Assembly: GCA_027622665.1 (NCBI GenBank)
Contig: JAQBYT010000043.1
Coordinates: forward strand, 1-32,105
DNA length: 32,105 nt
From: Verrucomicrobiota bacterium
Lineage (GTDB): Bacteria; Verrucomicrobiota; Verrucomicrobiia; Opitutales; Seribacteraceae
Direction: 5' to 3'
Below the pieces are notes generated by a model. That model was given only the letters and a program-made list of their open reading frames with translations, ran no database searches and was not told the DNA's origin. The first letter of the stretch is position 1. Each line of letters starts with the position of its first letter. Made by a program: the position numbers and the translations under genes. This document shows, piece after piece, positions 1,006 to 29,900 of this stretch.

Positions 1006-1663
1006 GGCTTTTTCCAGATACAAGAATATGAATCCCAATGGTAATCAAAGCATAATCCGTTTAGTGTCTCTCTGTACCAACCTAGTTCATCTAGGTATTG
1101 CATGCCTTCTGAGTATGTTATCCGATCTGAATTATCTAAAAGTAAATGGCCTCCACTCATTATCTTATTGGCACTGATAATAAGACTTTGAGACCTTAGC
1201 CTTCCGTCAATTGACCCTAGATGAAAGAATTATCAGGTAATTCCCTTAATCTTTTTAAGTACGGCGAATCATCCACATTATTATATTTACCCATTTGGAG
1301 ATTTCTATGAGAACATTTCCATTTCTTCGAATATTTCAACATTCGTCTGTCTTGCTTAAGTTTTTCTAACCACGAAGATTCATGTTCAATAGACAATAGA
1401 CTCTGAACTCTTTCTAAATAGAAAAGAGTTGAACCACCGCATCCAGTTTCAAAAACAATTTCATTTCCTTTTAATATATTGTTAAGGAAAAATATTGCAT
1501 TATAGGTCATCCACGGCAATCCAGCATTCAATGGACTACTATTAAGTACTTTGTCGTGAATCCATATTTTGTGAAATAGTAACCTTTTGAAATAAGTCGA
1601 TTCTGTTTTGCTTCTGAACAAGCAATTATTGTAGTCCTTAAATAATTTTACTGGAGAAATCAA
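1002..1663 (-). pseudogene. Class I SAM-methyltransferase-like gene with a 1-bp frameshift near 1220
   Basis: ORF 1217-1663 has LPWMTY and VFETGCGGSTLFY (SAM motif I-like) and stops at PDNSFI*. The adjacent frame continues (H)LGSIDGRLRSQ...GGHLLLDNSDR...WKKP* to TGA 1004-1002. Confidence 0.85.
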
Positions 1664-3009
1664 ATTTCTTTATATACAATTGCGAAGTCTGTTAGTATTT
1701 CACCGTTTCCCTCTTTTTGAACTCTTCCCGTCTCGTAGAAATCACCATTCACAACTTTTAATTGAATTGCGTTTGGCAACCAATCAATGGCTTTTTCTCC
1801 AACACCCAAAAAGGTTGTAACGAAGTAGTTACCCTCAGATAAGTTAAGCCTTTTGATTCTAACATCGATGGAGAAGTTATCTGCCGGTTCCATCTTGAAA
1901 TTAATCATTCTTGAATCAATAGTGGTTATTCTTTTACCAGAATTTGTGTCGATTCCAAATCGGAAGGAAGGTTTTTCGATGGTTACTTTGGTTCTTGTGA
2001 ATTTAAAATGGAAAATGGCTTCTTCACCGTTTTTAAGAAATGATAATTCTGCTCCATCTTTTGACTTTAACTTTATATCAACTAGTTTAAATTCTCCTGT
2101 CCCATTCCGATCTTTCCTGTCAATTATATTTTGTGAATTGGATTTCGAGGGTAATACAATGTCGTAATAATTCTGGATTACACTATCAGTGACACCTTGG
2201 GTTTTAATCTCTCCTTTGTTGAGTAAAATGCAACTTGAACATAAATTTTCGACCATTGGCATTTGGTGACTGACTAAGAGAATTGTTTTTCCCTCTGAAG
2301 AAATGTTTTTCATTTTTCCGATACATTTTTCTTGAAAGGAAACATCTCCAACTGCCAACACTTCATCCACAATGAGTATATCTGGATCTAGGTGAGCCGC
2401 TACTGCGAATCCTAATCGTACAGTCATACCGGAAGAATAGCGCTTTATAGGGGTGTCTATGAAGTCAGAAACACCAGCAAAATCTACAATCTCTTCGAAC
2501 TTTTTTGTTACCTCTTTTCGAGTCATTCCAAGAATTGCTCCGTTTACATATACATTTTCACGACCAGTCAATTCGGGGTGGAATCCAGTGCCGACTTCCA
2601 GCAATGACGCGACTCTTCCACGAACCTTAACCTCTCCTTTTGTTGGTTCTGTGATGCGGGAAAGGATTTTGAGTAGAGTGGACTTTCCAGAACCATTAGC
2701 TCCAATTAGACCTACCACATCTCCCTTTCTGATGGAAAAACGGAGATCTCGAAGAGCCCAAAACTCACTTTCATTTGTGAGTTGCGATTGGTTGATTGAT
2801 TGATCGGTATAATTCGTTGCTGGTGACTTCTGTTGCTTTTTCTTACGATTCCACCATCGGCTCAAGTCTTCGCGTAGGCTGGTCATTCCTATAGTGCCCA
2901 ATCTATATTTTTTCGATAAGTTGGTTACTTCTATTGAATGCTCGGTTTTCACATCGGTTGGTGAATGTACTTCTCTACTGATATCATTTTGAATCCTTGT
3001 GGCAGTCAA
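1660..3009 (-). CDS. wzt: Polysaccharide ABC exporter ATP-binding subunit with C-terminal carbohydrate-binding (Wzt_C) extension
   Basis: Walker A GANGSGKST, ASLLEVGTGFHPELTGREN, signature YSSGM, Walker B ILIVDE, H-loop VSH, and a roughly 170-aa beta-rich C-terminal extension. TTG start. Confidence 0.95.
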   Translation of the reverse strand: MTATRIQNDISREVHSPTDVKTEHSIEVTNLSKKYRLGTIGMTSLREDLSRWWNRKKKQQKSPATNYTDQSINQSQLTNESEFWALRDLRFSIRKGDVVGLIGANGSGKSTLLKILSRITEPTKGEVKVRGRVASLLEVGTGFHPELTGRENVYVNGAILGMTRKEVTKKFEEIVDFAGVSDFIDTPIKRYSSGMTVRLGFAVAAHLDPDILIVDEVLAVGDVSFQEKCIGKMKNISSEGKTILLVSHQMPMVENLCSSCILLNKGEIKTQGVTDSVIQNYYDIVLPSKSNSQNIIDRKDRNGTGEFKLVDIKLKSKDGAELSFLKNGEEAIFHFKFTRTKVTIEKPSFRFGIDTNSGKRITTIDSRMINFKMEPADNFSIDVRIKRLNLSEGNYFVTTFLGVGEKAIDWLPNAIQLKVVNGDFYETGRVQKEGNGEILTDFAIVYKEI

Positions 3010-3571
3010 TTATCAGAGATGTGTAACGATACGGTTTTTCCACAGTATTTCTCTCGTCGTTGTTAACTGACCGTCTAACCTTACCCCACTCTGCATTCCA
3101 TTCTTTTTTTTGGAAATTACCTTTCTTATCCCAATATTCTAGCGGGTTAATCCTTAATCCAGCCTTCTCGAAAACCTGTGAGAGGACCTCGATTGTGAAC
3201 AGGCACTTGTGGTCATCTGCTCCTGCACCATTTCCGTCTGGCTTTACATATTCTATATACGAAGGGTCTGGATGGTTTCCATCCGGTACTGCGATTCTAA
3301 CTCGTCCCCCATTTTGCAGAAAATTAAAACAATTTCGAGCTCCCTTCAAAGCGTCATCTTCTTCGAGGTGTTCCCATACATGTTCCGCAAAAAATGCTAA
3401 TTTGGATCCTTTTTTCCAATCCTTTCCACACTGTGTTTCAGACGTAATATCAATTTCAGGGAAGTCGGTGGACTTCCACCCATCTTGAAATGTATCAGAC
3501 GAGCCAATTATTATTTTCTTAGAATGACGTAATTGATACAGGTGTCTAAAATGGTAATAATTAGAGATCAA
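2984..3571 (-). CDS. SAM-dependent methyltransferase (type 11-like)
   Basis: AEHVWEHL...NCFNFLQNGGRVRIAVPD motif typical of glycan-locus methyltransferases. TTG start, overlapping the wzt start region. Confidence 0.85.
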   Translation of the reverse strand: MISNYYHFRHLYQLRHSKKIIIGSSDTFQDGWKSTDFPEIDITSETQCGKDWKKGSKLAFFAEHVWEHLEEDDALKGARNCFNFLQNGGRVRIAVPDGNHPDPSYIEYVKPDGNGAGADDHKCLFTIEVLSQVFEKAGLRINPLEYWDKKGNFQKKEWNAEWGKVRRSVNNDERNTVEKPYRYTSLIIDCHKDSK

Positions 3572-3605
3572 ATAACCTTTGATTTTTGTGAGGACTGTGA
3601 AACTC

Positions 3606-4460
3606 CTATAAATAGTCTACGACTCTTCTCTCCGTCCGTTTAAAAAGGTACATCCCGGAGAGCAACATGACAGCTGCGACGACGAATGAATAAAGAAGGA
3701 GAGAGGCTGAAAAGGAACCTTTACCCAACAAGCCGAAGCGGAAGGCTTCGACAACGGGTGCCATGGGGTTAAGGGATGCCCAGAAGCGATACTGCTCAGG
3801 GACCTCCGAAAGTGGATAGATGATGGGGGTAGCGTACATTAGAGCTTGAGCCAGAAAACCGGTGATTTGACAGAAGTCTCGATACTTGGCGGTGAGAACG
3901 GACATCCATAATCCAAGTCCCAACCCAAGGGCGGCAACCAAGGGAATGAGCAGTGGTAGTATGGCCAAGACCCAGGTAAACCCAAAAGGTTCGGCTACAG
4001 GTACGAAGAGCTTATAAATCAAAAAGTATCCGAAAAAAAAGATGACTTGGATGGAAAAGCCGAACAAACCGGAAATGCAATTAGCCAAGGGATTGATAAG
4101 CCTCGGGTAATACACTTTTTGGTAAATGCCTGCATTGGCGACGAAGGTTGAAGCATTTCCAGTGAAGCATCCCGAGAAATAACCCCAAATGATGAGTCCG
4201 GAATTGTAGAAGAGGAGGGGAGGGAGACCTTCGGTTGGTATTTTGGCGAAAGTTCCGAAGATTAGGGTGAAGACGATGGTAAGGAAAAGAGGTTGCAGGA
4301 CGAACCATGCTGGACCCAGGATTGTCTGCTTGTACTGTGCGACAAAGTCGCGACGAACGAGGAGGTAAAGGAGATCACGGTACTGCCAAATGCCAGCGAA
4401 ATCGAAACCCGTCCATCCGCTGGAGGGTTTGAGGGTGGTGATGTTGTCGCTTGAGGAAAT
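3606..4460 (-). CDS. wzm: Polysaccharide ABC exporter permease (ABC-2), about 284 aa, apparent ATT start
   Basis: The frame of ORF 3606-4115 stays open upstream and encodes the conserved Wzm N-terminus ITTLKPSSGW...IWQYRDLLYLLVRRDFVAQYKQTILGPAWFVLQPL...KVYYPRL. There is no in-frame ATG/GTG/TTG between the TAG near 4602 and 4115. ATT at 4460 gives (M)SSSDNITTLKP. The start position is inferred. Confidence 0.9.
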   Translation of the reverse strand: MSSSDNITTLKPSSGWTGFDFAGIWQYRDLLYLLVRRDFVAQYKQTILGPAWFVLQPLFLTIVFTLIFGTFAKIPTEGLPPLLFYNSGLIIWGYFSGCFTGNASTFVANAGIYQKVYYPRLINPLANCISGLFGFSIQVIFFFGYFLIYKLFVPVAEPFGFTWVLAILPLLIPLVAALGLGLGLWMSVLTAKYRDFCQITGFLAQALMYATPIIYPLSEVPEQYRFWASLNPMAPVVEAFRFGLLGKGSFSASLLLYSFVVAAVMLLSGMYLFKRTERRVVDYL

Positions 4461-4482
4461 GGGGAGAAGGAATGTGACGAGT

Positions 4483-5487
4483 TTAGCGACCGACGAGTTT
4501 ACGGCTAAGGTCGGAACTGGCTTGCTCCGTAGTCTTTGAGTGGACGTACCAGTCGATGGTTTTTTGTAGGCCTTCGGTGAAAATGGTTTGCGGAGACCAA
4601 CCTAATAATTCTTTTGCGAGAGCATTGCTGGCCACGCGGTTAAGCGGGCCGGTCGGTTTGTCGAGAAGTAACTTGATGGAGGCACCGGGGTTCAGGGTGT
4701 CGATGACCTGTTTGGCACAATCCTTAACCTTGATGCGTTCCATGGTGCCGAGGTTGACCGAGGTTCCGTCGTGGATCTTTTCGGCGGCGGCGATGGTGCC
4801 GGACACGATGTCGTCGACGTGGGTCCAATTGCGAATCTGCTCGCCGTTTCCCCAAACTTCAAATGGATCTAGCTTCAGGTATCCGCGGGCGATCATAGCC
4901 ATGACTGCATGGTTCTCCGTGCATCTTGGGCCATAAACAGTGAAGTAACGACAGGAAGTTGTCTGCAGACCGTGTTGCTGATGATAGGCCTTGAGCGTTA
5001 GCTCGGCCATCAATTTGGCCCAGCCATAGAGATCGTCGGCCTCGTAGGGCGGGGTAACCATGTCTTCGTGAAGAAAGACTTCCTTGGTGACGTCCATTTG
5101 GGCGGAGGTTGGGTAGACGCATCCGGAAGAGGCAAAGACGATCTTTTCAACACCATTGCGATGGGCGTAGCGAAACACTTGCCCGTCCAAGATCAAGTTG
5201 GTCGAACACTCGACTTGGTGGGCGTCGATGTAGCCGCGTCCGCCATGATCGGCGGCCAAGTGAAAGACGAGATCCATCCCTTTGGTCGAACGGTCGCAAA
5301 AAGCTGGCTCGAGGAGGTCGCCCTCGAAGACTTCGCAATCGAGGGATTCGAGATGTTTCCGTTCGCCGCTCGAGAAGTTGTCTGCCACTCGAACTTGGGC
5401 GTTCAAGGCCAAGAGTTGTTCAGTGAGATGAGAACCGATGAATGAGGCTCCGCCGGTGACGAGAACTTTTTTTGAGTTCCAATTCAT
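4483..5487 (-). CDS. NAD-dependent nucleotide-sugar epimerase, GDP-mannose 3,5-epimerase-like extended SDR
   Basis: VLVTGGASFIGSH, HLAADHGGRGYI (cf. LAADMGGMGFI of GME), ASSGCVYP, YGWAK (YxxxK), WGNGEQIRNWTHVDD. Confidence 0.9.
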   Translation of the reverse strand: MNWNSKKVLVTGGASFIGSHLTEQLLALNAQVRVADNFSSGERKHLESLDCEVFEGDLLEPAFCDRSTKGMDLVFHLAADHGGRGYIDAHQVECSTNLILDGQVFRYAHRNGVEKIVFASSGCVYPTSAQMDVTKEVFLHEDMVTPPYEADDLYGWAKLMAELTLKAYHQQHGLQTTSCRYFTVYGPRCTENHAVMAMIARGYLKLDPFEVWGNGEQIRNWTHVDDIVSGTIAAAEKIHDGTSVNLGTMERIKVKDCAKQVIDTLNPGASIKLLLDKPTGPLNRVASNALAKELLGWSPQTIFTEGLQKTIDWYVHSKTTEQASSDLSRKLVGR

Positions 5488-5503
5488 GATTGAGTAGTGT
5501 GCA

Positions 5504-6343
5504 CTAGGGTTTGATAGCTTCTACGTAAAGGGAGTCTGGTTTGCGGGGAATTCCCGTTTGAGTAAAATCCAGAAAAAAATCAGCCCAACCAGTAATGTCG
5601 CTTTGGTTTGCCGATTTAATTGAAATAGTGCGGAAACCAATTTGCTCTAGCAATTGTTCCAAGGAGAAGCGATCGTACATGTGTTTATGAACCTCTCCTG
5701 TATTCCCAAAACGACCTTCAGTAAGGGCTTGGTAATCTTCATTTCCTAAAAATTTCAAGCTTAACCAATTTTTCCAAAACGATCTTTGAAGTATTTTCTT
5801 TAAGCTCATCTTGATGCGGAGGTGTATCGGTATGGTGTTCGAAGGACTTTCTTTTGAGTTCGATTCTGAGGGAGCTTTTTCCAAGTGAGGGCTCACCTGT
5901 TGACCGCATCTTTCGATAATGAAATCTTTGTTCGGTGGGTTAGACCGTAAGAAATCAAGCATTCGTCCCCCTGACGTTTTCCTTGTGGTCTGGTCGTAAA
6001 GTTCGAGACGCATCCATTCTGCATCCATTTTGGCTGAATCATCGCCCTTATCTATGCGAGAGATGGCAGAAAGATAGGCTTTGCAGATGCCTTCCAAGTC
6101 TGGGACCACAACCCGTAGGATGCCTTTGGGTTTTAAAACGCGAAAACATTCCTCTACGAGGATTTGCCCGCCTTCTACGGCCAAGTGTTCGAGTAAATGA
6201 GAATGGTAAACGACGTCTACACTTCCCGATTTGAACGGAACCCCTTGTTTTGCTTCCCAATACTCGATGTCTTCGGACAAAGGATTGACATCGAGGTTTC
6301 TCCAAGACGAATGAACAGTCGATCCACAGCCAAGATTGAGCAA
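5504..6343 (-). CDS. SAM-dependent methyltransferase (type 11)
   Basis: LNLGCG motif I, SVDVVYHSHLLEHL, ECFRVLKPKGILRVVVPD, GEVHKHMYD, SLYVEAIK. TTG start. Confidence 0.92.
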   Translation of the reverse strand: MLNLGCGSTVHSSWRNLDVNPLSEDIEYWEAKQGVPFKSGSVDVVYHSHLLEHLAVEGGQILVEECFRVLKPKGILRVVVPDLEGICKAYLSAISRIDKGDDSAKMDAEWMRLELYDQTTRKTSGGRMLDFLRSNPPNKDFIIERCGQQVSPHLEKAPSESNSKESPSNTIPIHLRIKMSLKKILQRSFWKNWLSLKFLGNEDYQALTEGRFGNTGEVHKHMYDRFSLEQLLEQIGFRTISIKSANQSDITGWADFFLDFTQTGIPRKPDSLYVEAIKP

Positions 6344-6379
6344 AGTGAAGTTGTTTTTGATAGAAATTGATAGAAAACT

Positions 6380-7081
6380 TTAGATTTTCAATAACTCCTC
6401 GGCAATCATTCTAGCCAACTGAGTATGCCCACGAGCATTAAGGTGTACGCCGTCATCGAGGAGATGGTTTTTGGTGAATATTAAAGGATCCTTCCACCAT
6501 TTTCCAAGACTGTCCTGATCAGAAGCGATGCGTGGTTCGAGTATCTTGTTGTTATGGTAAATGGGATGTATCGGGAGAAACCAAACTGGGGTGTTTGGAT
6601 AGCGATTCTTAATGCGATTAATCAAGCCGACCTGCGATTTCATTGTTTCTTGCTCTGTTCGGCCCTCGAGCAAGTCATTGATGCCGGATTGAGCTATGAT
6701 GAGCCGCGGTGCTGCAATTTGGGAGTAATTATCCACCATGGATGAGATTTGCTGACTGTTTGCTCCTCGTTCGGCCAAAACTTTGTAATCGATGTCTTGA
6801 ATTGAACGCAGCTTGGTGATGAAACCGCGTGGGCGGTTTCCTTCATGCGTAATAGAGTCACCGACAAAAAGAATGTTGTCGGTTGAGGAGGGAGAAACGC
6901 CCATCATGTCGAAGTGAATGGAGTAGGAGTCCCAACGGAAATGAAGGAGAAAAAAGAGAGTTGTCCCCAGCATTAAGAGGAGAGCGGCAAAAATGCGCAA
7001 GGTCCGAGTCTTTCCGAGCCATGCAATTCCAAATGCTAAAAGAATGGGAAGTATGGTGAATGAAAATGGATGGATGGCCAT
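6380..7081 (-). CDS. Membrane-anchored SGNH/GDSL hydrolase-fold protein (candidate O-acetyltransferase or esterase)
   Basis: Blocks FVGDSIT, RGANS, SGINDL, DGVHLN. Two N-terminal hydrophobic helices. ATG 7081 lies 5 nt after the upstream stop, so the track start 7345 is over-extended. Confidence 0.85.
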   Translation of the reverse strand: MAIHPFSFTILPILLAFGIAWLGKTRTLRIFAALLLMLGTTLFFLLHFRWDSYSIHFDMMGVSPSSTDNILFVGDSITHEGNRPRGFITKLRSIQDIDYKVLAERGANSQQISSMVDNYSQIAAPRLIIAQSGINDLLEGRTEQETMKSQVGLINRIKNRYPNTPVWFLPIHPIYHNNKILEPRIASDQDSLGKWWKDPLIFTKNHLLDDGVHLNARGHTQLARMIAEELLKI

Positions 7082-7086
7082 GTGGA

Positions 7087-8166
7087 TTAGGAGTGAATCC
7101 CACATTTTCGCGCAAGAAAAGGAAAGCTCGACAATGCAATTGAGCGATAACTTCTTAAAGGGCGCTCGAAGGGAAATGAAAATGCATAGCAAAGTAAAAG
7201 TACAAGAATGATTGCCGTAGAAAGGCTCAGGTAGGGGAGATTTCCGGAAGCAGATAGGGCACTGATGAAAGCCATTAGGGGGAAGTGGATCACATAAAGA
7301 GAAAAAGAACATCCCGCTAGGTGTTTTAATAAGGATCCGAAGCAAGTCTTGCGATTATCACTTAGCTTGAGCCAACGGCTGCAACCGAAAATCAATAGAC
7401 CAAGGGCCATTGCGGTCGAATAGTCGTCGAAGTATTTGGCGGAATAAAAAAGGGGTGGGAAACCGAGACCTTGTATATCCCAAGGATGCCAATGGCTCCA
7501 ACGCTCGGTCATTCGATGAATAAGAAATCCAGCGCTTGGAATTATAAGTAGCAAAGATATTATGGTGTTTGTTCGCCAGTACTTACAAGCCTTGTAGGCG
7601 AATACTCCGACCAACCAACAAGGAAAAAGAAGAAGCACTTTAGGACCGGCGAGAAGAGAGGCGATGGTGCCCGCCAAAATCTTTTTTTTAAGGGTGGGTA
7701 GAAGCATAACCAGACCGAAAATTAAATAGTAGAAGAATTCGTAAGATAAGGACCAGAAGGGGCTGTTTGAACCAGGGCGAATACTGAGAAACCAGCTTTC
7801 GTTTAGAAAGGAAGCGGAAACAAGATATTTTACCAACATGTGGTCACCCCCGAAAATGGATTCGTAGGTGGTCGCATTCATGCTCCTACCCCAGTAGTCG
7901 AGGGCACATCCGATAGCTAAGGCGGGGATGACTACTGTCCAAAGTCGAGTAAGCCTTGCGAAAAGATACTGGTTGAAGTTCAAGTCCGGCTTGTTGTCGA
8001 CCGACCAACTAATCACGAAGCCGGAAAGTACGAAGAATACGATGACGTAATCTTGACCGTTCTGTGGTCCGATAGAGCTTGGGCCAAAAAACCAATGAAA
8101 ATTCGTGTGGCCAAGAAAAACGGCAAGAGTCGCTGTAATGCGCAATAGATCCAAGAATCCCCTCAT
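7087..8166 (-). CDS. Acyltransferase family 3 (OafA/YrhL-like) membrane protein
   Basis: LDLLR...VFLGH, VFFVLSGFVI, ARLTRLW, FWSLSYEFFYY, SFSLYVIHFP, FERP. Confidence 0.93.
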   Translation of the reverse strand: MRGFLDLLRITATLAVFLGHTNFHWFFGPSSIGPQNGQDYVIVFFVLSGFVISWSVDNKPDLNFNQYLFARLTRLWTVVIPALAIGCALDYWGRSMNATTYESIFGGDHMLVKYLVSASFLNESWFLSIRPGSNSPFWSLSYEFFYYLIFGLVMLLPTLKKKILAGTIASLLAGPKVLLLFPCWLVGVFAYKACKYWRTNTIISLLLIIPSAGFLIHRMTERWSHWHPWDIQGLGFPPLFYSAKYFDDYSTAMALGLLIFGCSRWLKLSDNRKTCFGSLLKHLAGCSFSLYVIHFPLMAFISALSASGNLPYLSLSTAIILVLLLCYAFSFPFERPLRSYRSIALSSFPFLARKCGIHS

Positions 8167-8256: not shown

Positions 8257-9960
8257 TTAGGAATCATCTTGAAGGAATGACAATCGTTCTTTGACTTGAC
8301 GATGTAGCTTGGCGATGGATTCTTCAAGAGATTGTGCATTCGCTATACAGAGAGCGAGCATGGTGCCTCCGACATTGCGTCGTCCTTCTCTCGAGGCTTG
8401 AATTCTACCTCTGAAATCATACCCACTGGAGGGGAAGGATGGCATTTTGCCTTTAAAGTGCTTATTGGGCCAAAAGCATCTGAACACATGAAGCTTTTTA
8501 TTCCCTTGCGCGAATTCATAAGCTTCGAAAGGAATATGGTAGTTCTGGAGGGGTACGGAAATGGTTTTGGGACGTGTGCCGGGTGCAGGATCAATCTGAA
8601 CGAGTCCAGTAAGGGGGAGGCATGCGTCGGGAGAGTGGGTCGAGAGAATTGATGTGCATGCCCCTCCCGACTCCCAATGACATCGGAATCCTTGCCAATA
8701 TTCCGCTTCCTGATTGATAATTGACGAGCCGTCGTAAGGATTAGTTTTCGAGTGAGCCCGCTCTTGCCATTCTACGGATAGGGCGTCCTCATAATGAAGT
8801 TGCGCCTCGACCAAGGACGAAATGGGCTTTTGCTCAGTGACAATGCTTTGATCGGTGAAACTTGTAATTAGCCGGGGCAATTTTTCCATTGATGATTCTC
8901 TCCGATCATAATGTAGATTAGTTGCTGTAAAGATTAGTATAATCCATATGCAAGCACCCATTCCGAAACCTATCGGCGGAGACACCTTTAGGTTTTCCCA
9001 ATCATTGTGTTCTTCGTCTTCGGTATTACGATGGTTGTGGGTTCCAGCCATCCGGGCGAGTATGAACAGGACGATAAGAATACCCCCTGATTCAATCCAT
9101 CCCGCTAGGTCGTGCAAAGAAGGCGCATCTTGACCGAAGAGTGAGAAAAGGGGGTCGTGCAGGAGGTTTCCATGCCCCTTGATTTTGATGAAGGTGAGTG
9201 AGAAAGCCCGAAGAAGATTTAGGCTCAAGGCAACCACGGTACCGGCTAGGCAAAAGATTATTCTATGGATGATGCCCAAGCGATAGTAGAACCCAAGAAA
9301 CAGGCTGACTACGAGTGACGCCTGTAAACCGTGGATACCACTGCAGGCTTCGTCCACACCGACTTGACCGAAAACTCCAATGTCGATCACGTTGCCGAGA
9401 AGACGTACCTCGTGCCCCATGAATAAGAGGATGTTTACGATGAGCGAGGAAACGCGCCCTTGCAACCATTGGGTAAGCTGCAGATCAGTGGCCAAAGGCC
9501 AAGGTATTGCCACTAGAAAGAACAGGATGGGGAAGGCTAGCATTTTAGCCCGATTAAATCCGCCTTGATCATATAATAGGGCAAAGCTAAAGCTTGCTGC
9601 ACAAATGAAGAGTGCGACGTTCAGCATGCGCCAGTCCGAATTGGCTTCTCGAATGACCCAAAGAGGAAGTAAGGCGAGAAGGCAAGGGATTCCTAGATAA
9701 AGCCAAGCCCTTGATTGCGATGTTCGAGATGACTCTCTATCGTGTTCTTCTTTGCTTTTGCTTTTTAGAGCAAGATAAAGACAAAGTATCGGGACGATGA
9801 AGCCATGGCTGTATTGGTCGTTGAGTGACCAAGTCAGTTGCAGTTGATAGATGAGCATCCCCCAAACTCCGGCAAGAGATAAAATGCCTAGAATTAAGCG
9901 AATGTTTGCCTTCGACTTTGTTTCTGGAACGGGAGCGGTGAGTTCTACTGAATCGCTCAT
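8257..9960 (-). CDS. Exosortase (EpsH/Xrt family) with a fused C-terminal EpsI-like extracytoplasmic domain
   Basis: QYSHGFIVP, multiple TM helices, AIPWP, VDEACSGI (catalytic Cys), NLLR (Arg), HDLAG (His). The C-terminal soluble region has HSPDACLPLTG (EpsI-type HxPxxC). Confidence 0.88.
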   Translation of the reverse strand: MSDSVELTAPVPETKSKANIRLILGILSLAGVWGMLIYQLQLTWSLNDQYSHGFIVPILCLYLALKSKSKEEHDRESSRTSQSRAWLYLGIPCLLALLPLWVIREANSDWRMLNVALFICAASFSFALLYDQGGFNRAKMLAFPILFFLVAIPWPLATDLQLTQWLQGRVSSLIVNILLFMGHEVRLLGNVIDIGVFGQVGVDEACSGIHGLQASLVVSLFLGFYYRLGIIHRIIFCLAGTVVALSLNLLRAFSLTFIKIKGHGNLLHDPLFSLFGQDAPSLHDLAGWIESGGILIVLFILARMAGTHNHRNTEDEEHNDWENLKVSPPIGFGMGACIWIILIFTATNLHYDRRESSMEKLPRLITSFTDQSIVTEQKPISSLVEAQLHYEDALSVEWQERAHSKTNPYDGSSIINQEAEYWQGFRCHWESGGACTSILSTHSPDACLPLTGLVQIDPAPGTRPKTISVPLQNYHIPFEAYEFAQGNKKLHVFRCFWPNKHFKGKMPSFPSSGYDFRGRIQASREGRRNVGGTMLALCIANAQSLEESIAKLHRQVKERLSFLQDDS

Positions 9961-11750
9961 TGTGAACTGGTGAAGCTATCGGGGAAAAGTGAGGTAAGAG
10001 CCTTGCGTTCAGCTAGACCGATGCTGTCTTTGGTTATACTTGATTCGAGCCGAATAGCTGTTTGGGTGTCTTGATTCTGGCGAAGGACTTGGCTGCATAT
10101 CAATATCCACGCCGGTCGTGTTTCACGCCAAGTTCGCCAATCCGATATGTCGCCGAGGGAAACTAGGGCTTTGTCGGGTTCTTCGTTTCGTAAGTGAGCC
10201 AGCGCTGCAGTGATGCGGAAGCTGCGATCTTTGTTATCGATCAAGAGGCGATTTGTCTTATCGACGAGATCCAAAATTTTGTTTTTTGAAACTGATGGAT
10301 CAAGGAGTTCGAAATACCGTTCTGCGTTCTGCAGCTTGGAATCCTTGCCATGAATTTGTAGCAGTTTAGATATCCAGTAACGAATTTCGTGAAGTTCTGC
10401 CGAGGAGGCTCGATAGTGTAGAAGTTTTTCCAATGCGTATCGCCTTAACCCTGGCTCATCTGAAATATTCTCTAGGATGTGACAAAGGCTGCGGATATCT
10501 CCGCTAGCCTCTAGGTAACGGCAAGTGGCAAGTACTCGACGAGTATCCTTGCGGACTTCCTTCAGTAGTTGATCTAAATCTGCTGCTGCCTTGTCGAAAT
10601 CACCAGAGATAGAATGAAGGCGCACGGAAATTATGAGCTTCCACTGAGACGAAATGGCGGGTGCATTTGCCAACTCGTTTTTCATGTCATCTCGTCGGTC
10701 CAGTACTGCCAGTGCATTCATTCTAAGCTTGAATAGTTCCTCGTGTCGTCTTGCTCTGGCTGCAGGCAATTTCTTCAATAGAAGCGGGAAGGCTCGCAGG
10801 CGTCCTAGCCATCGGCAATATATTTCAAGCTGACTATTATCGTTTAGGTCGAAAACCTCGGCACATTCTTCGAGCACAGCTCTTTTATCATGTTCTTGAC
10901 TAGCGGAATCAAAACGGAGGGCATGAATGCGAAGAAAATCTATTGGTTTGCTATGTGGGTTGACTTTTAGTAGTTCGAGGCAACGCCCCAGACCTTGATT
11001 GGCAATTGGTAGGGTTGTATGGATCAGGGTCATGTGCCGAATTGCCTCGATGCCTGTTTCGTCTGGTCGCGGGGCAAACTTCGCAAGAAGTCTGCCCGCT
11101 TTCCCCAGATATTGGCTTTGACCTAGGTGTGCGGCAAGTTTTGCGTATAGAAATACTACCTCGGGCGAATTCTCTTTCTTTTGTTCGAGTAATTTACTGA
11201 CAATCTCTAGTGATTCGAGTGGTTTACCCGCTTCGGCCAGGAATTCTGCCTGTAAAAGCTTATGCTCGGAAAAGGATCGCCACTTAGCGTCTTTCTCTAA
11301 TGCTTCAATCTGTTTACTTGCGGCGAGCATGGCGAAATCCCTTGGGTTCCTCCCCAGATTTGCATCTCTGTCCCGAGCCACTTGAAGACAGTGGAGAACA
11401 AGCATTTCTCGGTCTTCAGCATTTGCTCCTTCGAGTTGCATTATTTTTTGCCATTCTAGAATGGCCTGCAATGGAGCAGTACGGGTTAACAATTCAACAT
11501 AGTTTCGCGCCACTTTTATGTCCTCGGGTAAAAGCAACATAGCTATCTTCGCTTTAAGAATGCCCGCATCAAGGAGACCAGTTGTATTTGCGAGGTTTTC
11601 GCTTTTAAACATTTCGCTGTCTTTTACCAGTGTTTCGGCCTTCCACTTGCGGATTATTGGCAAGTATAAAGGGGCTGAGAAAAAAGCGGTGGCGAAAGAC
11701 GCCAGCGTAAACATGACTATAATATATTTAATCGAGAGATTTCTCATCAA
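9957..11750 (-). CDS. Membrane-anchored all-alpha (TPR-like) protein
   Basis: 597-aa ORF with an N-terminal hydrophobic helix and A/L/E/R-rich helical repeats (GDFDKAAADL, ALAHLRNEEPDKAL). Stop overlaps the exosortase ATG. Start is TTG 11750 or ATG 11747. Confidence 0.75.
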   Translation of the reverse strand: MMRNLSIKYIIVMFTLASFATAFFSAPLYLPIIRKWKAETLVKDSEMFKSENLANTTGLLDAGILKAKIAMLLLPEDIKVARNYVELLTRTAPLQAILEWQKIMQLEGANAEDREMLVLHCLQVARDRDANLGRNPRDFAMLAASKQIEALEKDAKWRSFSEHKLLQAEFLAEAGKPLESLEIVSKLLEQKKENSPEVVFLYAKLAAHLGQSQYLGKAGRLLAKFAPRPDETGIEAIRHMTLIHTTLPIANQGLGRCLELLKVNPHSKPIDFLRIHALRFDSASQEHDKRAVLEECAEVFDLNDNSQLEIYCRWLGRLRAFPLLLKKLPAARARRHEELFKLRMNALAVLDRRDDMKNELANAPAISSQWKLIISVRLHSISGDFDKAAADLDQLLKEVRKDTRRVLATCRYLEASGDIRSLCHILENISDEPGLRRYALEKLLHYRASSAELHEIRYWISKLLQIHGKDSKLQNAERYFELLDPSVSKNKILDLVDKTNRLLIDNKDRSFRITAALAHLRNEEPDKALVSLGDISDWRTWRETRPAWILICSQVLRQNQDTQTAIRLESSITKDSIGLAERKALTSLFPDSFTSSQ

Positions 11751-11869
11751 TCGGCTGACTAAAGTTCGGAGTCCATCATTACTTCGACTAAACGATCAGA
11801 GGAAACGGTAGAGCACCAAACAAAGAGCGATATTTGGAACTATTCCACTTAAGTGCCAAAGTCTGATTT

Positions 11870-11998
11870 CTGGATTTCATGGTGCTACTTTAGGTACAAG
11901 TCCAGATACCCAGCAACATCCCTCTCGAAGTAGTTCTGCCAGATAGGGATTACGAATCGTTCTTACCCGGATATGCCGTTGATCAAAGCTTTGGTCAT
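11870..11998 (-). pseudogene. gmd: Relic of the 5' end of GDP-mannose 4,6-dehydratase
   Basis: ATG 11998 gives MTKALINGISG* (TAA where Gln is expected), then after a frameshift PYLAELLREGCCWVSGLV and SST. Compare the Gmd consensus [36 protein letters not shown]. Confidence 0.7.
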
Positions 11999-12028: not shown

Positions 12029-12069
12029 CAAGCTACCGCCCTTGGCTGCTTGCGGGTTTCCGCAAAGCC
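12029..12069 (-). promoter_or_regulatory. JUMPstart/ops element (RfaH loading site) with 5' hairpin
   Basis: Minus strand reads GGCT-TTGCGG-AAAC-CCGCAA-GC-AGCC-AAG-GGCGGTAGCTTG. The last 12 nt fit ops GGCGGTAGnnTG exactly, and AGCCAAGGGCGGTAGC matches the JUMPstart core. It lies about 60 nt after the RfaH-like gene, on the non-template strand of the glycan operon. Confidence 0.85.
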
Positions 12070-12102
12070 TTCCATATGAACCTGAATGCAATGAACTGTT
12101 GA

Positions 12103-12645
12103 TTAACTCACTCTCATTGGATGAACCTTAGGGAAATCCAATGAATTTTCGTCTATCTCGATTTCGGTAGGTCGACCAAGAAATTCTAAAAGTACTTTAA
12201 CTCGCTCCCGAGCAGGAATAAGACGAGTAACCATGCCGTTTCCACCTTGGAAAAGGCCTTCGATTATGGTTACCTCTGATCCTACATGATGGGGGCGATC
12301 AGGGATTTCAAGCAATCCGTCCACAGTGGTCGCGATTCTCAACTCCTTTATGATTCCGGAATCCACGGGGTCTGGTTTTAGGTTTCGACGAAGTACGTAT
12401 GCTACACCATGAGCAAAATGTACGGATCTCATGTTGAGTATAGGATCGAAACGTGCGAAAAGGTATCCTGGAAAGAGTGCTTGGGGAGACGCTGCATTTT
12501 TCTTTCGCTGAGAAATGGTTTTCGGAAAAAAAACATCAACTCCTTGTATTGCTTTAATCGATTGCGCTGCTGCATTCTCCGCTCGAGGTTTGGCTCTCAC
12601 GCAGTACCAATTAAGCTGCCAATCTCCAGTGAGCGCTGGATTCAT
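12103..12645 (-). CDS. rfaH: Transcription antitermination factor, RfaH-like NusG paralog
   Basis: NGN domain WYCVRAKPRAE...ALFPGYLFARFD. KOW domain GSEVTIIEGLFQG...ERVKVLLEFLGR. Adjacent ops and polysaccharide genes. Confidence 0.88.
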   Translation of the reverse strand: MNPALTGDWQLNWYCVRAKPRAENAAAQSIKAIQGVDVFFPKTISQRKKNAASPQALFPGYLFARFDPILNMRSVHFAHGVAYVLRRNLKPDPVDSGIIKELRIATTVDGLLEIPDRPHHVGSEVTIIEGLFQGGNGMVTRLIPARERVKVLLEFLGRPTEIEIDENSLDFPKVHPMRVS

Positions 12646-13079
12646 AGTTTTAGGAGTCCGGCCATTGCAGGTAATAGCCTTGAGCTAGCCTTGGTAAGGC
12701 GTTTTAGTTTCTCAATGCGGATTTGATAAAACTTCGCGTTTTGGGCTTCAATATTGCTGGAATCAATTAATTCTTCCATTCGTCGAATGCGTTCCTTGGC
12801 ACTTTCGAGATGGGGCATAATCTCGTCTTTCATGAAATTTGAGAATAGTCTGCGAAATTCTGATTCCGCTAGATAGTGGTCGCGGCGATCGCCCGCAACA
12901 TACATGGAACGAACGGCTTTAAGGGTTCGCAGGTTTTTTAAACCCTGGCTTGCGGAACCAATACTGATACCCAAACGAGAGGCGACTGCGTCCATCGGCA
13001 ATGGTTTCTCTGAAAAGTAAAGCAGTCCGTAGATCTCGCCGACCGAGCGCGGCAATCCCATCATGTTCATCAGTCGCAC
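12642..13079 (-). CDS. GbsR/MarR-family transcriptional regulator (true start possibly upstream, e.g. ATA 13154)
   Basis: GLPRSVGEIYGLLYFSEKPLPMDAVASRLGISIGSASQGLKNL...GDRRDHYLAE. Stop overlaps the rfaH ATG (ATGA). Confidence 0.88.
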   Translation of the reverse strand: MRLMNMMGLPRSVGEIYGLLYFSEKPLPMDAVASRLGISIGSASQGLKNLRTLKAVRSMYVAGDRRDHYLAESEFRRLFSNFMKDEIMPHLESAKERIRRMEELIDSSNIEAQNAKFYQIRIEKLKRLTKASSRLLPAMAGLLKL

Positions 13080-13354: not shown

Positions 13355-14770
13355 ATGAATAACAACAGGGTGCGCGGATTAGCCTCGCTTCACAATGCGG
13401 CTCTTTTGCTTACGGTTATCGCATGTTTTTGGATTATCCATTATTTTTGGAAATCCTCGGGGCACGAATTGATCAATTTGCCTTGGAGTTACGCACTGGC
13501 TGCTGTCCTTGGCGTGTTCTTGGCATCTTTTGGATCTTTCGACTCTTATGGTGCGTTTCTTCACTCTATCGGGTGGCGTCGCCTAGGCGCTTCCCTGATT
13601 AAGTCAAACTTTCAAGTGGCTCTCATTGCTTTTTTGGTCTTTGCCTTCTACTTCGCCACTAAAGACAAGGCAACCAGTAGGCTTTTCCTCGCTGTATTTA
13701 TTGGAGCTTGCTGGCCTGTTCTCGTTTTGGCGAATTTCAGCTTCCCAGTGCTTTTTCAGCGTTTTTCCACACCTTCTTCCAGCGATCGAAAGAGTGTGAT
13801 CATTGGAGACGGGGGTGCTCTCGACTCTTTGAGTCAATGGCTCGACCGGCATACTGCCCAAGGATTTTCTTTCGCCGGTGTTTTCTCAACTTCCCGTTGT
13901 GTTCCGGAAAAACTGTCCCTTCCGGATCTTGGGCATTACTCATTGCTCGATGAGTACCTTGAACACAACGAAATCCATCAAGTTGTCGTTGTGCCCGACG
14001 AGCACATTGACCGCTGGATCCCCCTTGTTGCGGAAAACTCAAATCGCCATGGTTGTCGGGTTCTCATCTACAATTCACTTTCCAGTTTGTTTGATTCGCG
14101 TCTAATTTTCGTAGAAGAATCGGGGCGCCAATTTTTCAGACTTCAGAACGAACCGCTCGAAAGCCCTTTCAATCGAATGGTGAAGCGTGTTTTCGATGTT
14201 GCTCTAAGTCTTCCCGCTCTCCTCTTGGCGTTGCCGCCAGCCATGATTTTTGTGTGGTTGTTTCAACGTATACAGTCTCCCGGCCCCCTTTTCTTTCGTC
14301 AAGAGAGGGTCGGGCTTGCAGGTCGTAAATTTGTTATCTGGAAGTTTCGTTCCATGGGGCATGATTTCTCAGGCAAAAGGAACGAAGCTGCACAGGCGAC
14401 TCGCGCCGACACAAGGATTTTCCCTGCGGGTCGGTTTATGCGTCGTTTTAGCATCGACGAAATTCCTCAATTTTTAAATGTACTAAAGGGCGAGATGAGC
14501 CTTGTTGGCCCACGTCCTTATCTTGCTCAGCACGATTACCTCTTTCAGCGTGACTATAAGGCTTATCGGGTTAGGCAATTCGTGAAGCCAGGAGTAACTG
14601 GTCCTGCTCAATGCCGTGGTCTACGAGGGGAATTTACCGATCCCGAACTTGTTCGTCGTCGTATCGAGATGGATTTCGATTATGTTGGCAACTGGTCAGT
14701 TTGGACGGATTGTGAGATTGTACTACGCACCGTGGTTCAAGTCGTCTTCCCTCCGCGTTCCGCTTACTGA
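13355..14770 (+). CDS. Polyprenyl-phosphate glycosylphosphotransferase (WcaJ/WbaP-type priming transferase)
   Basis: Four N-terminal TM helices, Rossmann-like linker (VIIGDG), KRVFDV, SPGPLFFRQERVG, KFRSM, SIDEIPQFLNVLKGEMSLVGPRP, VKPGVTGPAQ, YVGNWS. Confidence 0.95.
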   Translation: MNNNRVRGLASLHNAALLLTVIACFWIIHYFWKSSGHELINLPWSYALAAVLGVFLASFGSFDSYGAFLHSIGWRRLGASLIKSNFQVALIAFLVFAFYFATKDKATSRLFLAVFIGACWPVLVLANFSFPVLFQRFSTPSSSDRKSVIIGDGGALDSLSQWLDRHTAQGFSFAGVFSTSRCVPEKLSLPDLGHYSLLDEYLEHNEIHQVVVVPDEHIDRWIPLVAENSNRHGCRVLIYNSLSSLFDSRLIFVEESGRQFFRLQNEPLESPFNRMVKRVFDVALSLPALLLALPPAMIFVWLFQRIQSPGPLFFRQERVGLAGRKFVIWKFRSMGHDFSGKRNEAAQATRADTRIFPAGRFMRRFSIDEIPQFLNVLKGEMSLVGPRPYLAQHDYLFQRDYKAYRVRQFVKPGVTGPAQCRGLRGEFTDPELVRRRIEMDFDYVGNWSVWTDCEIVLRTVVQVVFPPRSAY

Positions 14771-14789
14771 GACGATTCTTACTGCTCTA

Positions 14790-15599
14790 GTGAGTTTCAA
14801 GACCGACGACTCCCTCCATTCACTTCCTGCTTTCCCGACTCGAACTGTTCTTGGAGTTAAGTTTTTTTCGGGTAGTTTGACAGAGGTTACTGATCATGCC
14901 TTGCTTGGCGGACTAGTAGTCGCCCCATCCGGTCCCGGACTGGCAAATGACCTTCCTCGGGATCCTGCCTATCGTGATGCCCTCGTTGCCGCCGATCTCG
15001 TTCTTCCCGACAGCGGGCTCATGGCTCTATGGTGGAATCGTTCCCATTCGAACAAAAAGGAAAAGTTGCCTCGGTTGTCCGGCCTGCTTTTCCTCAAGGA
15101 ACTCATCAAGCGGGAAGCCCAAGGAGTCCTGCGGGATTCTTTCTGGATTATGCCCGATGCCGGCCAAGATGCCGACAATCGAGGATGGCTCGCAGAAGAG
15201 GCTGGACTTGTCATCGAGACCAAGGACGTCTACATCGCACCAGTGTATGCCGGTGCGGGTCTTCTTGCCGACGAGTCCCTTCTTAAGCTTTTGGTCGAAC
15301 GGCGACCAAAACTAATAATGGTAAATCTTGGTGGTGGCGTGCAGGAACGCCTCGGTCACTATCTGCGGGATCATCTCGACTACCGCCCGATTATTGTCTG
15401 CACCGGGGCTGCACTTGCCTTTCTCTCGGGTCAGCAAGTGCGGATTCCCCACTGGGCTGACCGGCTATACCTCGGCTGGCTCCTTCGTTGTTTAGCCAAT
15501 CCCGTTCGTTTTATCCCTCGCTATTGGGCGGCTCGCAAACTGGTAGGACTCCTTAAACGATATGGCGCCGACTCGCCTCTCCCTCTAGAAACGGAGTAA
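14790..15599 (+). CDS. WecB/TagA/CpsF (WecG) family glycosyltransferase
   Basis: ADLVLPDSG, RLSG, VNLGGGVQE, GAALAFLSG...RIPHWADRLYLGWLLRCLANPVRFIPRY. GTG 14790 preferred to the track start 14616, which overlaps the upstream gene. Confidence 0.9.
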   Translation: MSFKTDDSLHSLPAFPTRTVLGVKFFSGSLTEVTDHALLGGLVVAPSGPGLANDLPRDPAYRDALVAADLVLPDSGLMALWWNRSHSNKKEKLPRLSGLLFLKELIKREAQGVLRDSFWIMPDAGQDADNRGWLAEEAGLVIETKDVYIAPVYAGAGLLADESLLKLLVERRPKLIMVNLGGGVQERLGHYLRDHLDYRPIIVCTGAALAFLSGQQVRIPHWADRLYLGWLLRCLANPVRFIPRYWAARKLVGLLKRYGADSPLPLETE

Positions 15600-26777: not shown

Positions 26778-26939
26778 TTCGGATATTCTGTCTCCTTTGA
26801 TTTGGCCTAGCCGAATCGAGATTGTTAAATAAACCGCTTGCGCGTTCGGCAAACTCGGGCTTTATTTGTCTTAGTTTTCTCCCTTTTTTTGAAGCCCGTG
26901 TTCCCTCAATCTTATACTGAAACACTTTCTACCGCGCGT

Positions 26940-29900
26940 ATGCGTAGAAAACTTTCGTTTTTCAGGTTGGGATCGGCTCTCCAATTTCTTTGCCTGTTGG
27001 CCATTGGTTTGTCGCACACTGCAATGGCCAAGGTGTCGGCCACGATCATTCTGGCTTCCGTCGAGGGCGAATTGAAGGCCCTTTCGCTCGACGAGGATTT
27101 AGAACTTACCCTCGACGAATCATTCGTCGGCAAGAGCGTGGACGAAAACTTCATCCTCACTACCGGCAAAAACGGCAAGGCCGTCCTCCTCTTCTCCAAC
27201 GGCGTACTGGTCATACTCAAGCCCAACACTCGTCTCTACATACGCACGTTCGTACAAGAATCGTTTTCATCTAAGAATCTACCCCTACCCGGAGAACTGG
27301 AAGAGGAACCAAGTACTTCCCACCTCGAAATCCATTTGGACACTGGCGATTTGGTGGTGAAGGCTCCCAAACTCAAGAGGGGATCTTCCCTTATGCTCAC
27401 CAGCCCTCTCGGTACCGCACAGATTCGAGGCACAATGTTCCAGATCGTCGTTGCTCGCGATCCCGATACCGGCACGGTCTCCGGTGGCGTAAATCTCATC
27501 TCAGGAGACATAGATTTCACCGACGTCTCCGGCAACACCAGCATCTTGGCCTCCGGTCAGGGCTTGGAAGTTTCCACGGGTAAACTGGGAGAATCATCCG
27601 GTGGCGTCTCCGGCGAACTGCGTGATTTGTCCGCCAAGTTCGGTCCTGTCTTGGCCGGTACGGGAACGTTCCCGCCGATAGTGGCTCCTCCCAATACGGT
27701 ATCTCTTCCCCCTGAAGGCGTTGTAGCCCCGGAGGCTCCCGCTCCGACCGTCGGCTATTTGCCCCGAGAAAACGGTTGGGGGAGCATACACGATATCGCC
27801 ACCGCTACCTTCTTCGATATCGAGGAAGCCGAATTCTCGGTAAGCACAGTGACGTTCGATGCAATCGAATCATCCGTATCCGTGGATACGCCCACCCCCA
27901 TGCTTACCGCCCCCGCGGTTCCCGCTGCGATTTCAGGAGGCGACATGGCTCCCCCCGATCCATTCTTCGGCGGCGCGCCCAAGGTCGCCATCAAAGGCGA
28001 GGCAACTCTCATGTGGGAAATGGGCATCCCGTTCGTCGATCCCTTTGTTACCGCCACCGATTTCTCAGGAGCGGACATTGCTCCCTCGACCAAGCTCGTT
28101 AATTCTCCCGACGTTTTGACCCCCGGGACATACAAGCTCATTTACGCCACCAACGATTTCCGCGGCTTCGAAGGCTCGGCCACCCGTACCGTCAAGGTCG
28201 TTGTCACTCCTCCGACCATTACTTTGAAACCAGGAAAGGAGGCGTATCCGAAACTAAATTCGCAGAATCGACCATCTGAAATCGATCTCACCGGCAAAGT
28301 AGTTTACCACAGTGTCAAAAGCCGAAACCCGCTTTTCTCGGATTCCGGAACTTTTCAAGATCCCGGTTTCACCGCAGCTACTGCCTCCACCAGCAATCCC
28401 ATCTTTTCCGGTCAAAACCTCACGAATATGGTTCAATCGGCGGGTCTTTCCGCCGTAACTTTTGGCGATAAAGGGACCTTTTCCGTTACTTACACGGTTA
28501 ACGACCAAATTCATCGAAAGGCAACTCTTCCCGGCGGCATACCTGTTTCCACCACCGTGACCCGTGAGGTACGTATTGCCGATCTCACGCCTCCAAGAGT
28601 TTTTCTCAATGGTTCCCTATCCGTCCAAGTCGAGGCTGCAACTTCATACTCGGATGCCGGAGCTATTGCGCAGGACAACTATGACCCCCAAAGTGATCTG
28701 CTTCCTAAAATTCAAGTTTCCAGCACCGTCGATCTCATGGTAGAGGGCGACCACTCTGTGCACTATTACGTCACCGACGCCGCCGGTAACGTTTCCGACA
28801 CGGTTTCTCGATCAGTGACTGTCGTGGATACAACGCCTCCTGAAATTGCACTCTTCGGTTCCCCGATAATTTTCGTGGATTTCAATTCCACTTACAGGGA
28901 TCTTGGTGCTTACGCCACGGATACCCGAGCCAGGGACATTACGGACAAGATCGTCGTCGATGATCCCGTAGCCGCCATGTTTCCCGACCTCTCCGATCCG
29001 CTAAACCCGATTTATCCAGACCCCGACAATAAAAAAATTGGTACGTACACCGTTACTTATGAGGTTTCCGATGGCGCAAATACTCCCAACATCGTATCTA
29101 TCACCAGGGAGGTCATTGTGCTGGGGAATGATGGTCAAGGCCCGAAAATGAGACTCTATTACCTTCCTAAGGAAGAAAATGGAACGAAATCTTTGATCGT
29201 GAACGTCGGCGACACATACAACGATCCCGGAGCCTATGCATTCAAGGATCTCGGTACTGGTGGCGTGCAGCATTTCAAAGTAACGAGATTGAATGATCCC
29301 GACATGAGCAACTTGGGAGAGTACAACATTCAATTCTTATCTTACGACGATTTCGGAAATAAGATGACTATTTCGCGTACTGTTGAGGTGCAGGATACGA
29401 GCGCTCCCGTGGTATATCCCAACAAGTCCGATGGCCAAACCGATCTAGCTCTTGAAGCCGGCGTGTCCTATCGCGACGACGGTGCCTCCGCCATCGACAA
29501 TTACAAGGGAGACCTCACCGCCGAGATTCAAACCGATTTCTACAGGATTACCGGAGACGCCGCCGTACTTTTCGACATTGCCAATATGCAAACCGTTGGT
29601 TTCATCGATCCGGACCCAGCCACAGGCTATGCCGAATATCGGGTGGTCTACACCGTTTCCGATGGAAGTGAAAACAGTCCCGATGGTGATGCTAACCGCA
29701 CCCTGATGGTCTACGATACCACCGCGCCTGTCGGCGAAATGTTGGCTGTGACCTCTGAGAGTAGCTTTGTATTTGCTTCAGACGGCGACAAAACTTTCAA
29801 GGTCGTTGGCGACAATTCCAAAGTTGTTTTTCCCGAGGATCCGGATTGGGGATCTACGGGATCTAAAGTGGAGGCAAAACTTAAGGCGTCGGAATCTCCT

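Follow-up and report, generated by a model that had tools for sequence, protein, structure and literature searches.

The window, i.e. the whole stretch of 32,105 nucleotides that was analysed, is an entire contig. On its minus strand, a GbsR-like HTH gene is followed by an rfaH-like gene, a hairpin with an ops site, a broken gmd remnant, and glycan genes running off the contig. The features are the following:

12642..13079, minus strand: GbsR/CudC-like (MarR-type) HTH regulator (NF047500 CudC, E 1.3e-19, below cut-off)
12103..12645, minus strand: RfaH-type NusG paralog, 180 aa (PF02357; TIGR01955, 69.7 bits; tree)
12044..12069, minus strand: conserved hairpin (-14.5 kcal/mol, z -2.3; covariation)
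12029..12040, minus strand: ops 12-mer GGCGGTAGCTTG (sequence; present at +59 to +65 in each of the 18 closest loci that could be evaluated)
11762..11998, minus strand: broken gmd remnant (GDP-mannose 4,6-dehydratase; tblastn with the Gmd of relatives)
9957..11750, minus strand: TPR-like protein, first intact gene after ops (weak TPR matches, E 0.003)
8257..9960, minus strand: exosortase-family protein (PF09721, E 1.8e-36)
1660..8166, minus strand: glycan modification/export block (Pfam and NCBIfam)

The start codon of the HTH gene is uncertain, its frame being open to 13196, and its stop overlaps the start of the rfaH-like gene (ATGA). The minus strand then reads AGCCAAG followed by the exact ops 12-mer GGCGGTAGCTTG at 12040-12029, 62 nt 3′ of the rfaH-like stop (12103), which confirms the initial annotation of such a site about 60 nt behind an RfaH-like gene. 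The site agrees with the definition of ops in sequence (GGCGGTAGnnTG), in strand (non-template) and in position (operon leader). It had also been described as oriented towards a long glycan operon, and glycan ORFs are indeed found on the minus strand 3′ of ops down to ~1660, with two more unassigned ORFs beyond. The block at 1660..8166 encodes an acyltransferase, a GDSL esterase, a methyltransferase, a NAD-dependent epimerase, Wzm, one unassigned ORF and Wzt. Within the contig, the operon covers 12.0 kb from ops and 13.1 kb from the HTH gene; as the window is the entire contig, it may extend further. On the plus strand, a divergent pair made of a WcaJ-type priming glycosyltransferase gene and a WecG-family gene (13355-15599) is separated from the HTH gene by a short A+T-rich gap, and may supply the same glycan pathway. 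Further away on the same strand (26838-32105), an open frame of more than 1750 aa with FecR-like and repeated Ig-like domains is cut by the contig end.

The gmd remnant, whose ATG lies 30 nt 3′ of ops, consists of the N-terminal ~56 codons, interrupted by a stop and a frame change, joined to the C-terminal ~19 codons. It was detected by tblastn at 11948-11823 (E 2.7e-4), and by weak but collinear matches at 11998-11966 and 11818-11762. Four relatives (L010, L013, L016 and L017) have an intact gmd directly after ops, and a comparison of these sequences indicates that gmd was likely the former first gene after ops. Contigs from two seawater RNA runs cross the junction of the remnant without gap, so that an assembly error is unlikely. 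The remnant has an internal deletion, and intact gmd-like genes are present on contigs C21 and C25 of the same genome.

The 12-mer GGCGGTAGCTTG occurs once in the window (in shuffled sequences, the mean was 0.02, with one match in 2 shuffles of 100), and 6 times in the 4.5-Mb genome. The remaining exact 12-mers of the genome had at most 19.5 bits in a covariance-model search, or were absent from it, and were treated as chance. With 6 copies in the genome, the 12-mer alone proves little, and the case therefore rests on context and conservation. A promoter and terminator scan of the window remained at chance level, including a weak sigma70-like match starting at 12031 (4 found, 3.2 expected). 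No Rfam match was obtained in the window at the gathering threshold, nor any blastn match in E. coli genomes. Contigs from four seawater RNA runs cover the locus piecewise, and in two studies they span the rfaH-like 3′ end and ops; no ops variant is listed among the contigs covering the site. Co-transcription was rejected as a reading of these contigs, DNA carry-over being uncontrolled.

Conservation was examined in the best 80 of 534 confirmed related loci. The 19 closest of these 80 belonged mostly to Opitutales/Opitutia, the rest coming from other Verrucomicrobiota except two otherwise-labelled records. The closest relatives of the genome are marine Opitutales, and the verrucomicrobial origin initially suspected is thus correct. 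Ops was present at +59 to +65 in all 18 of the 19 closest loci that had downstream sequence, ten of them with the exact 12-mer and one with a C at position 6; conservation in orthologous loci had been named as a check in the initial annotation. Farther loci mostly read GGCGGCAGC. Within 300 nt of the stop, 34 of 76 loci had the core GCGGYAGC and 42 had no ops core; the opposite strand had it in 4 of 76, and control windows in 16 of 372. L079, among the 34, is probably a chance match. Among 78 evaluable related loci, an HTH gene was located upstream in 30 of the 34 bearing the element, but in only 3 of the 44 without it.

Some related loci had additional sites. In L086, an ops-type element is present on both sides of the rfaH-like gene (-971 and +264 from the stop), and L012 has a second ops-like site at ~+4156 from the stop, which is 4 kb into the operon region. 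Multi-copy, nearly identical stretches with a C6 ops-like core at their end were also seen (L154-L157 in G363 and G096, L159-L160 in G009 and G126, L163-L166 in G267), some of them at contig ends. They are possibly repeats or mobile elements with an ops-like site.

Across Verrucomicrobiota, the element consists of a covarying hairpin plus ops, together ~45 nt long. In the window, the hairpin ends 3 nt 5′ of ops (1 nt in the family consensus) and has lost two outer pairs; it is predicted to act as a pause hairpin of the nascent RNA. A z score below -1.5 was obtained for the hairpins of 25 of 37 elements, against 2 of the 41 motif matches lying in coding sequence, and for 12 of 17 non-marine elements. 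When RNAalifold was run on a sequence-only alignment, it returned no consensus hairpin and only two invariant pairs inside ops, because stem lengths vary. Imposed on that alignment, the proposed structure had 77.6% of cells paired, with a modest excess of compensatory changes over slid controls. In 40 unlinked copies, which were outside model building and whose alignment for pair counts was fitted to the structure, 90% of cells were paired, with 79 compensatory changes against 28 in shuffles. The inner stem covaries in both arms. Within ops, all 76 elements agree at positions 2, 4, 5, 7 and 9; C3 and G8 are kept in 75 and T11 in 73, and position 6 is a T in 28 and a C in 48.

The genome encodes two PF02357 proteins. 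The gene of one is beside rplK/rplA-like ORFs, and the other is the specialised paralog of the window, an NGN + KOW NusG-family protein distinct from the housekeeping NusG. Its ORF is intact, relatives being 81-88% identical, and among solved structures the closest in sequence is E. coli RfaH (E 5e-10); Foldseek, with NusG at rank 1 and RfaH at ranks 2-3, did not separate the two. The initial annotation had called the gene RfaH-like. RfaH is the top NCBIfam family for 21 of 21 proteins, all under cut-off; for the window protein the two curated RfaH models gave 69.7 bits (TIGR01955, cut-off 144.5) and 45.4 bits (NF006534, cut-off 124). TIGR01955 was built from five sequences, according to PMC7593976. 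The UpxY model (NF033644, cut-off 100) gave 40.3 bits with the window protein and 40-77 bits over the 21 proteins.

According to PMC5995543, the E. coli RfaH side chains reading G5 and T6 are K10, H20, R23 and R73. The corresponding residues here are K19, S29, A32 and H79. The initial annotation had considered that a lack of ops-contact residues would speak against it: K10 is kept and the three others are not, which is a partial loss, and relatives vary at these places. The RNAP-binding F56 is kept in the window protein, and 79 of the 80 proteins aligned have an F there. The loop by which NusG binds Rho (I-F-G, replaced by L-I-N in RfaH) reads F-L-G, an intermediate. As for the autoinhibition residues, E48 is changed to Q, I93 is kept and F130 is changed to V; an AlphaFold model made from a 35-row alignment has a beta C-terminal domain, with which fold switching remains compatible. 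A covariation of K10/R73 with T6 versus C6 was considered and rejected after 40 further loci. In the initial set, R73 was present in 17 of 19 T loci and 3 of 17 C loci; in the added loci, T sites were accompanied by H, R or T, and C sites by R, Q, K, P and others. The link of R73 with T6 had looked strong, but the T set was mostly one family.

A first tree was built in quick mode with 68 rows, and a careful one with 40, leaving out 18 verrucomicrobial and 10 other, mostly long-branched, rows. In the careful tree, the verrucomicrobial proteins formed one clade (99/96), which joined alpha-, gamma- and Desulfotalea RfaH-type rows at 95/90, outside the gamma group (100/94). In this NusG-paralog phylogeny, as proposed initially, the proteins thus sat with RfaH-type rows, but the AU test did not reject a clade with UpxY-type rows (p 0.124), and LoaP was represented by a single row on a long branch. 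From these sequence comparisons, the verrucomicrobial proteins likely belong with RfaH. UpxY-like paralogs were noted in other genomes of the phylum (L271-L282), on separate branches, 2 of 201 being over cut-off; no convincing ops core was seen in the 8 UpxY-like loci checked. Rho is encoded in the genome, where two Rho-like genes were observed (G000:C47:126879-128039 and C55:427816-428934, 530.9 and 451.9 bits respectively).

To count elements, a covariance model, biased to Opitutales, was used, and hits of at least 30 bits were taken as strong elements. It replaced a plain 14-mer pattern scan (matches in 109 of 401 genomes), dropped as a measure of the element: among the 75 matches examined of 150 listed, 41 were classed as coding and only 3 were just after a paralog. 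The source genome has two strong elements but one specialised paralog. The second element is located as follows:

G000:C21:14371-15042 (L003), minus strand: second GbsR-like HTH gene and hairpin-ops, with an ATG 8 nt after ops

It lies on contig C21, 3′ of this second GbsR-like gene and 5′ of wzz and nucleotide-sugar genes, with no rfaH. At this place, a polysaccharide-export SLBB gene is found upstream, and several small ORF pairs that look nucleotidyltransferase/HEPN-like by eye are interspersed.

Of 150 Opitutales genomes, 65 encode the paralog, as a single copy almost without exception, and 44 contain 72 elements of at least 30 bits, 31 linked to rfaH and 41 unlinked. The initial proposal of a self-contained cassette is therefore abandoned, given the C21 operon and these unlinked copies. 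The paralog was present in 43 of the 44 genomes with such an element, compared to 22 of the 106 without one, so that 22 of the 65 paralog-bearing genomes have no element at this threshold. In a phylum sample of 150 genomes, partly overlapping the Opitutales set, 24 of 27 element-bearing genomes have the paralog, against 41 of 150 overall (hand count); as the genomes are kin, these tallies overstate independence. An HTH gene precedes 32 of 40 unlinked elements. From a scan of 57 of the 74 ORFs downstream, 30 of the 40 precede glycan or sugar-phosphate genes (24 direct glycan families, 6 SIS/PfkB sugar-phosphate enzymes), 3 lie before sulfation genes and 7 have no assignment. Conversely, in 11 genomes with elements elsewhere, rfaH has no ops core in its next 500 nt, an arrangement like that of E. 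coli. This means that loading would not occur purely in cis.

The element, its fixed place before glycan genes, the covariation of its hairpin and its co-occurrence with the paralog are direct observations. By analogy with characterised systems, we consider it quite probable that the hairpin-ops is a conserved leader signal that pauses the polymerase, loads the RfaH-type protein, and spares the glycan operon from Rho termination. Transposed from E. coli RfaH, transcription would start upstream of the HTH gene, which likely sets initiation, and the polymerase would pause at ops position 11. There, a C3:G8 hairpin formed by non-template DNA would expose G5 and position 6, and the bound paralog would keep off NusG and Rho, and may aid ribosome loading. 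As described for Bacteroides opsX in PMC11685472, pausing would be prolonged by the RNA hairpin, located 12-14 nt from the 3′ end. This hairpin may offset a weak base reading, since position 6 is a T or a C and the contact residues vary. The single paralog would serve its own operon plus, in trans, one or two other HTH-ops operons. In E. coli, G4, G5 and A7 are needed for RfaH loading rather than pausing, according to PMC5995543; their invariance argues for base reading, and the unlinked sites for action in trans.

Could the element be a hairpin-stabilised pause only? A constitutively open paralog would then board without reading bases, either in cis while being translated or by way of the RNA hairpin, which has been suggested for monomorphic RfaH and LoaP. 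H20, R23 and R73 are unconserved and show no relation to T6/C6, some autoinhibition residues differ (E48 to Q, F130 to V), the modelled C-terminal domain is beta, and operon-adjacent monomorphic homologs are described as ops-independent in PMC13015549. However, G4, G5 and A7 would not be expected to be invariant in 76 of 76 elements if only pausing mattered, the E. coli results of PMC5995543 being a guide, and boarding in cis accounts poorly for 41 unlinked elements of 72 and for the 11 genomes with elements elsewhere and without an ops core in the 500 nt after rfaH. Besides, an AlphaFold model from a 35-row alignment does not exclude fold switching. We regard this explanation as unlikely. An HTH gene lies ahead of 32 of the 40 unlinked elements and of 30 of the 34 linked ones, the stem arms form an inverted repeat, and a sigma70-like match, weak and within chance, starts at 12031: the element might instead be an HTH operator or roadblock, or an RNA-processing or translation hairpin, the RfaH link being a by-product of shared operons. 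This is very unlikely in our opinion, as covariation of both arms of the inner stem is better explained by a structure than by an operator, what does not vary is an asymmetric ops core identical to that of E. coli, element and paralog occur together in 43 of 44 genomes, and the element is downstream of the HTH gene, not at its promoter.

One may finally imagine that the site is a relic in this genome, where the local system may be decaying since gmd was destroyed and contact residues were lost (R73 to H, H20 to S); the two missing outer pairs of the hairpin go in the same direction. We give hardly any credit to this idea: the rfaH-like ORF is intact with relatives 81-88% identical, a genome of the same genus (L238) has identical ops and residues, many relatives without gmd still have ops before the TPR-like gene, and the covering seawater contigs list no ops variant. 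We conclude that the locus, in high likelihood and by analogy, works like RfaH/ops, while, strictly, it falls outside the RfaH and JUMPstart families in their present models.

Deep conservation or transfer of the ops code had been suggested in the initial annotation. Deep conservation stands; there is no indication of a recent transfer from enterobacteria, since the clade of these proteins spans the phylum and lies outside the gamma-RfaH group. More tentatively, and without giving it the better chance, we propose that the ops code may be older than the split between the RfaH lineages of Verrucomicrobiota and Proteobacteria. Verrucomicrobiota would have retained an older bipartite site, pause hairpin plus GCGGYAGC. 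One paralog, lacking the T6 pocket of E. coli RfaH, would read it in cis as well as in trans, in a phylum-wide HTH-RfaH-ops regulon of surface glycans. If true, ops recognition would be early in RfaH evolution, not late as placed by Wang et al. 2020 (PMC7593976), and the system would bridge RfaH/ops and UpxY/opsX. Nearly all that is established on RfaH/ops comes from enterobacteria, and this locus is far outside them. The verrucomicrobial clade, with the same core, a natural T6/C6 variation, other contact residues and a conserved hairpin, offers ready-made variants. With them one can ask how recognition of a DNA signal arises in a NusG paralog, whether the hairpin of JUMPstart serves for pausing, and whether action in trans is possible for a paralog whose predicted fold is open. 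In a phylum that is abundant but hard to work with, the element is also a marker of surface-glycan operons.

How does this locus compare with known systems? A full-text search, which covers few subscription papers, found, among the papers listed, none on RfaH/ops or JUMPstart in Verrucomicrobiota. According to Wang et al. 2020 (PMC7593976), RfaH is found in 23 phyla, and ~95% of the set is proteobacterial; the main text of that study does not mention Verrucomicrobia. Linked rfaH-ops is already described there, in the Shewanella CL7 rfaH-ops-EPS operon, which resembles our locus in having rfaH beside its own ops and polysaccharide operon; the CL4 cluster has an HTH neighbour. Homologs with a predicted open fold have been tied to adjacent operons in PMC13015549, whose accessible text leaves Verrucomicrobia unmentioned. 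Outside the phylum, a hairpin and an ops-like site also follow the RfaH-type gene on a Mesorhizobium plasmid (L096, 3565-3576) and a Desulfotalea plasmid (L265, 2111-2122), on separate tree branches; these are single examples (1 of 6 alphaproteobacterial loci examined).

The JUMPstart label given initially holds for one half only. At three JUMPstart sites of E. coli K-12, the last 19 nt match at 16-17 of 19 positions, and a weak 5-bp stem is found in the same register 5′ of ops, in agreement with the stem-loop noted at JUMPstart in PMC2864571; the architecture is thus shared, a stem-loop being immediately 5′ of ops in the window as well. In contrast, only 3-5 of the first 20 nt are identical, the 5′ halves being unrelated, and RF01707 (39-nt consensus, with a 5′ GGTAGC repeat) gave no hit at the site at E<=10.

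In Bacteroides, the UpxY/opsX system as described in PMC11685472 also has a ~40-nt leader combining a pause hairpin and a non-template DNA hairpin, with the regulator gene heading the glycan operon. The verrucomicrobial core is of the E. coli type, GCGGYAGC rather than YGCGNAGCR, and there is one paralog per genome, not many; no UpxZ-like gene was seen after the window paralog. With E. coli RfaH/ops, the locus shares the 12-mer consensus, the position at the head of glycan operons, and the presumed use of one paralog for unlinked sites. The verrucomicrobial system differs from it by a longer hairpin of higher stability (most copies between about -8 and -21 kcal/mol), by T6 being often a C and H20, R23 and R73 not being kept, and by a paralog gene that is often in an operon behind a GbsR-like HTH gene.
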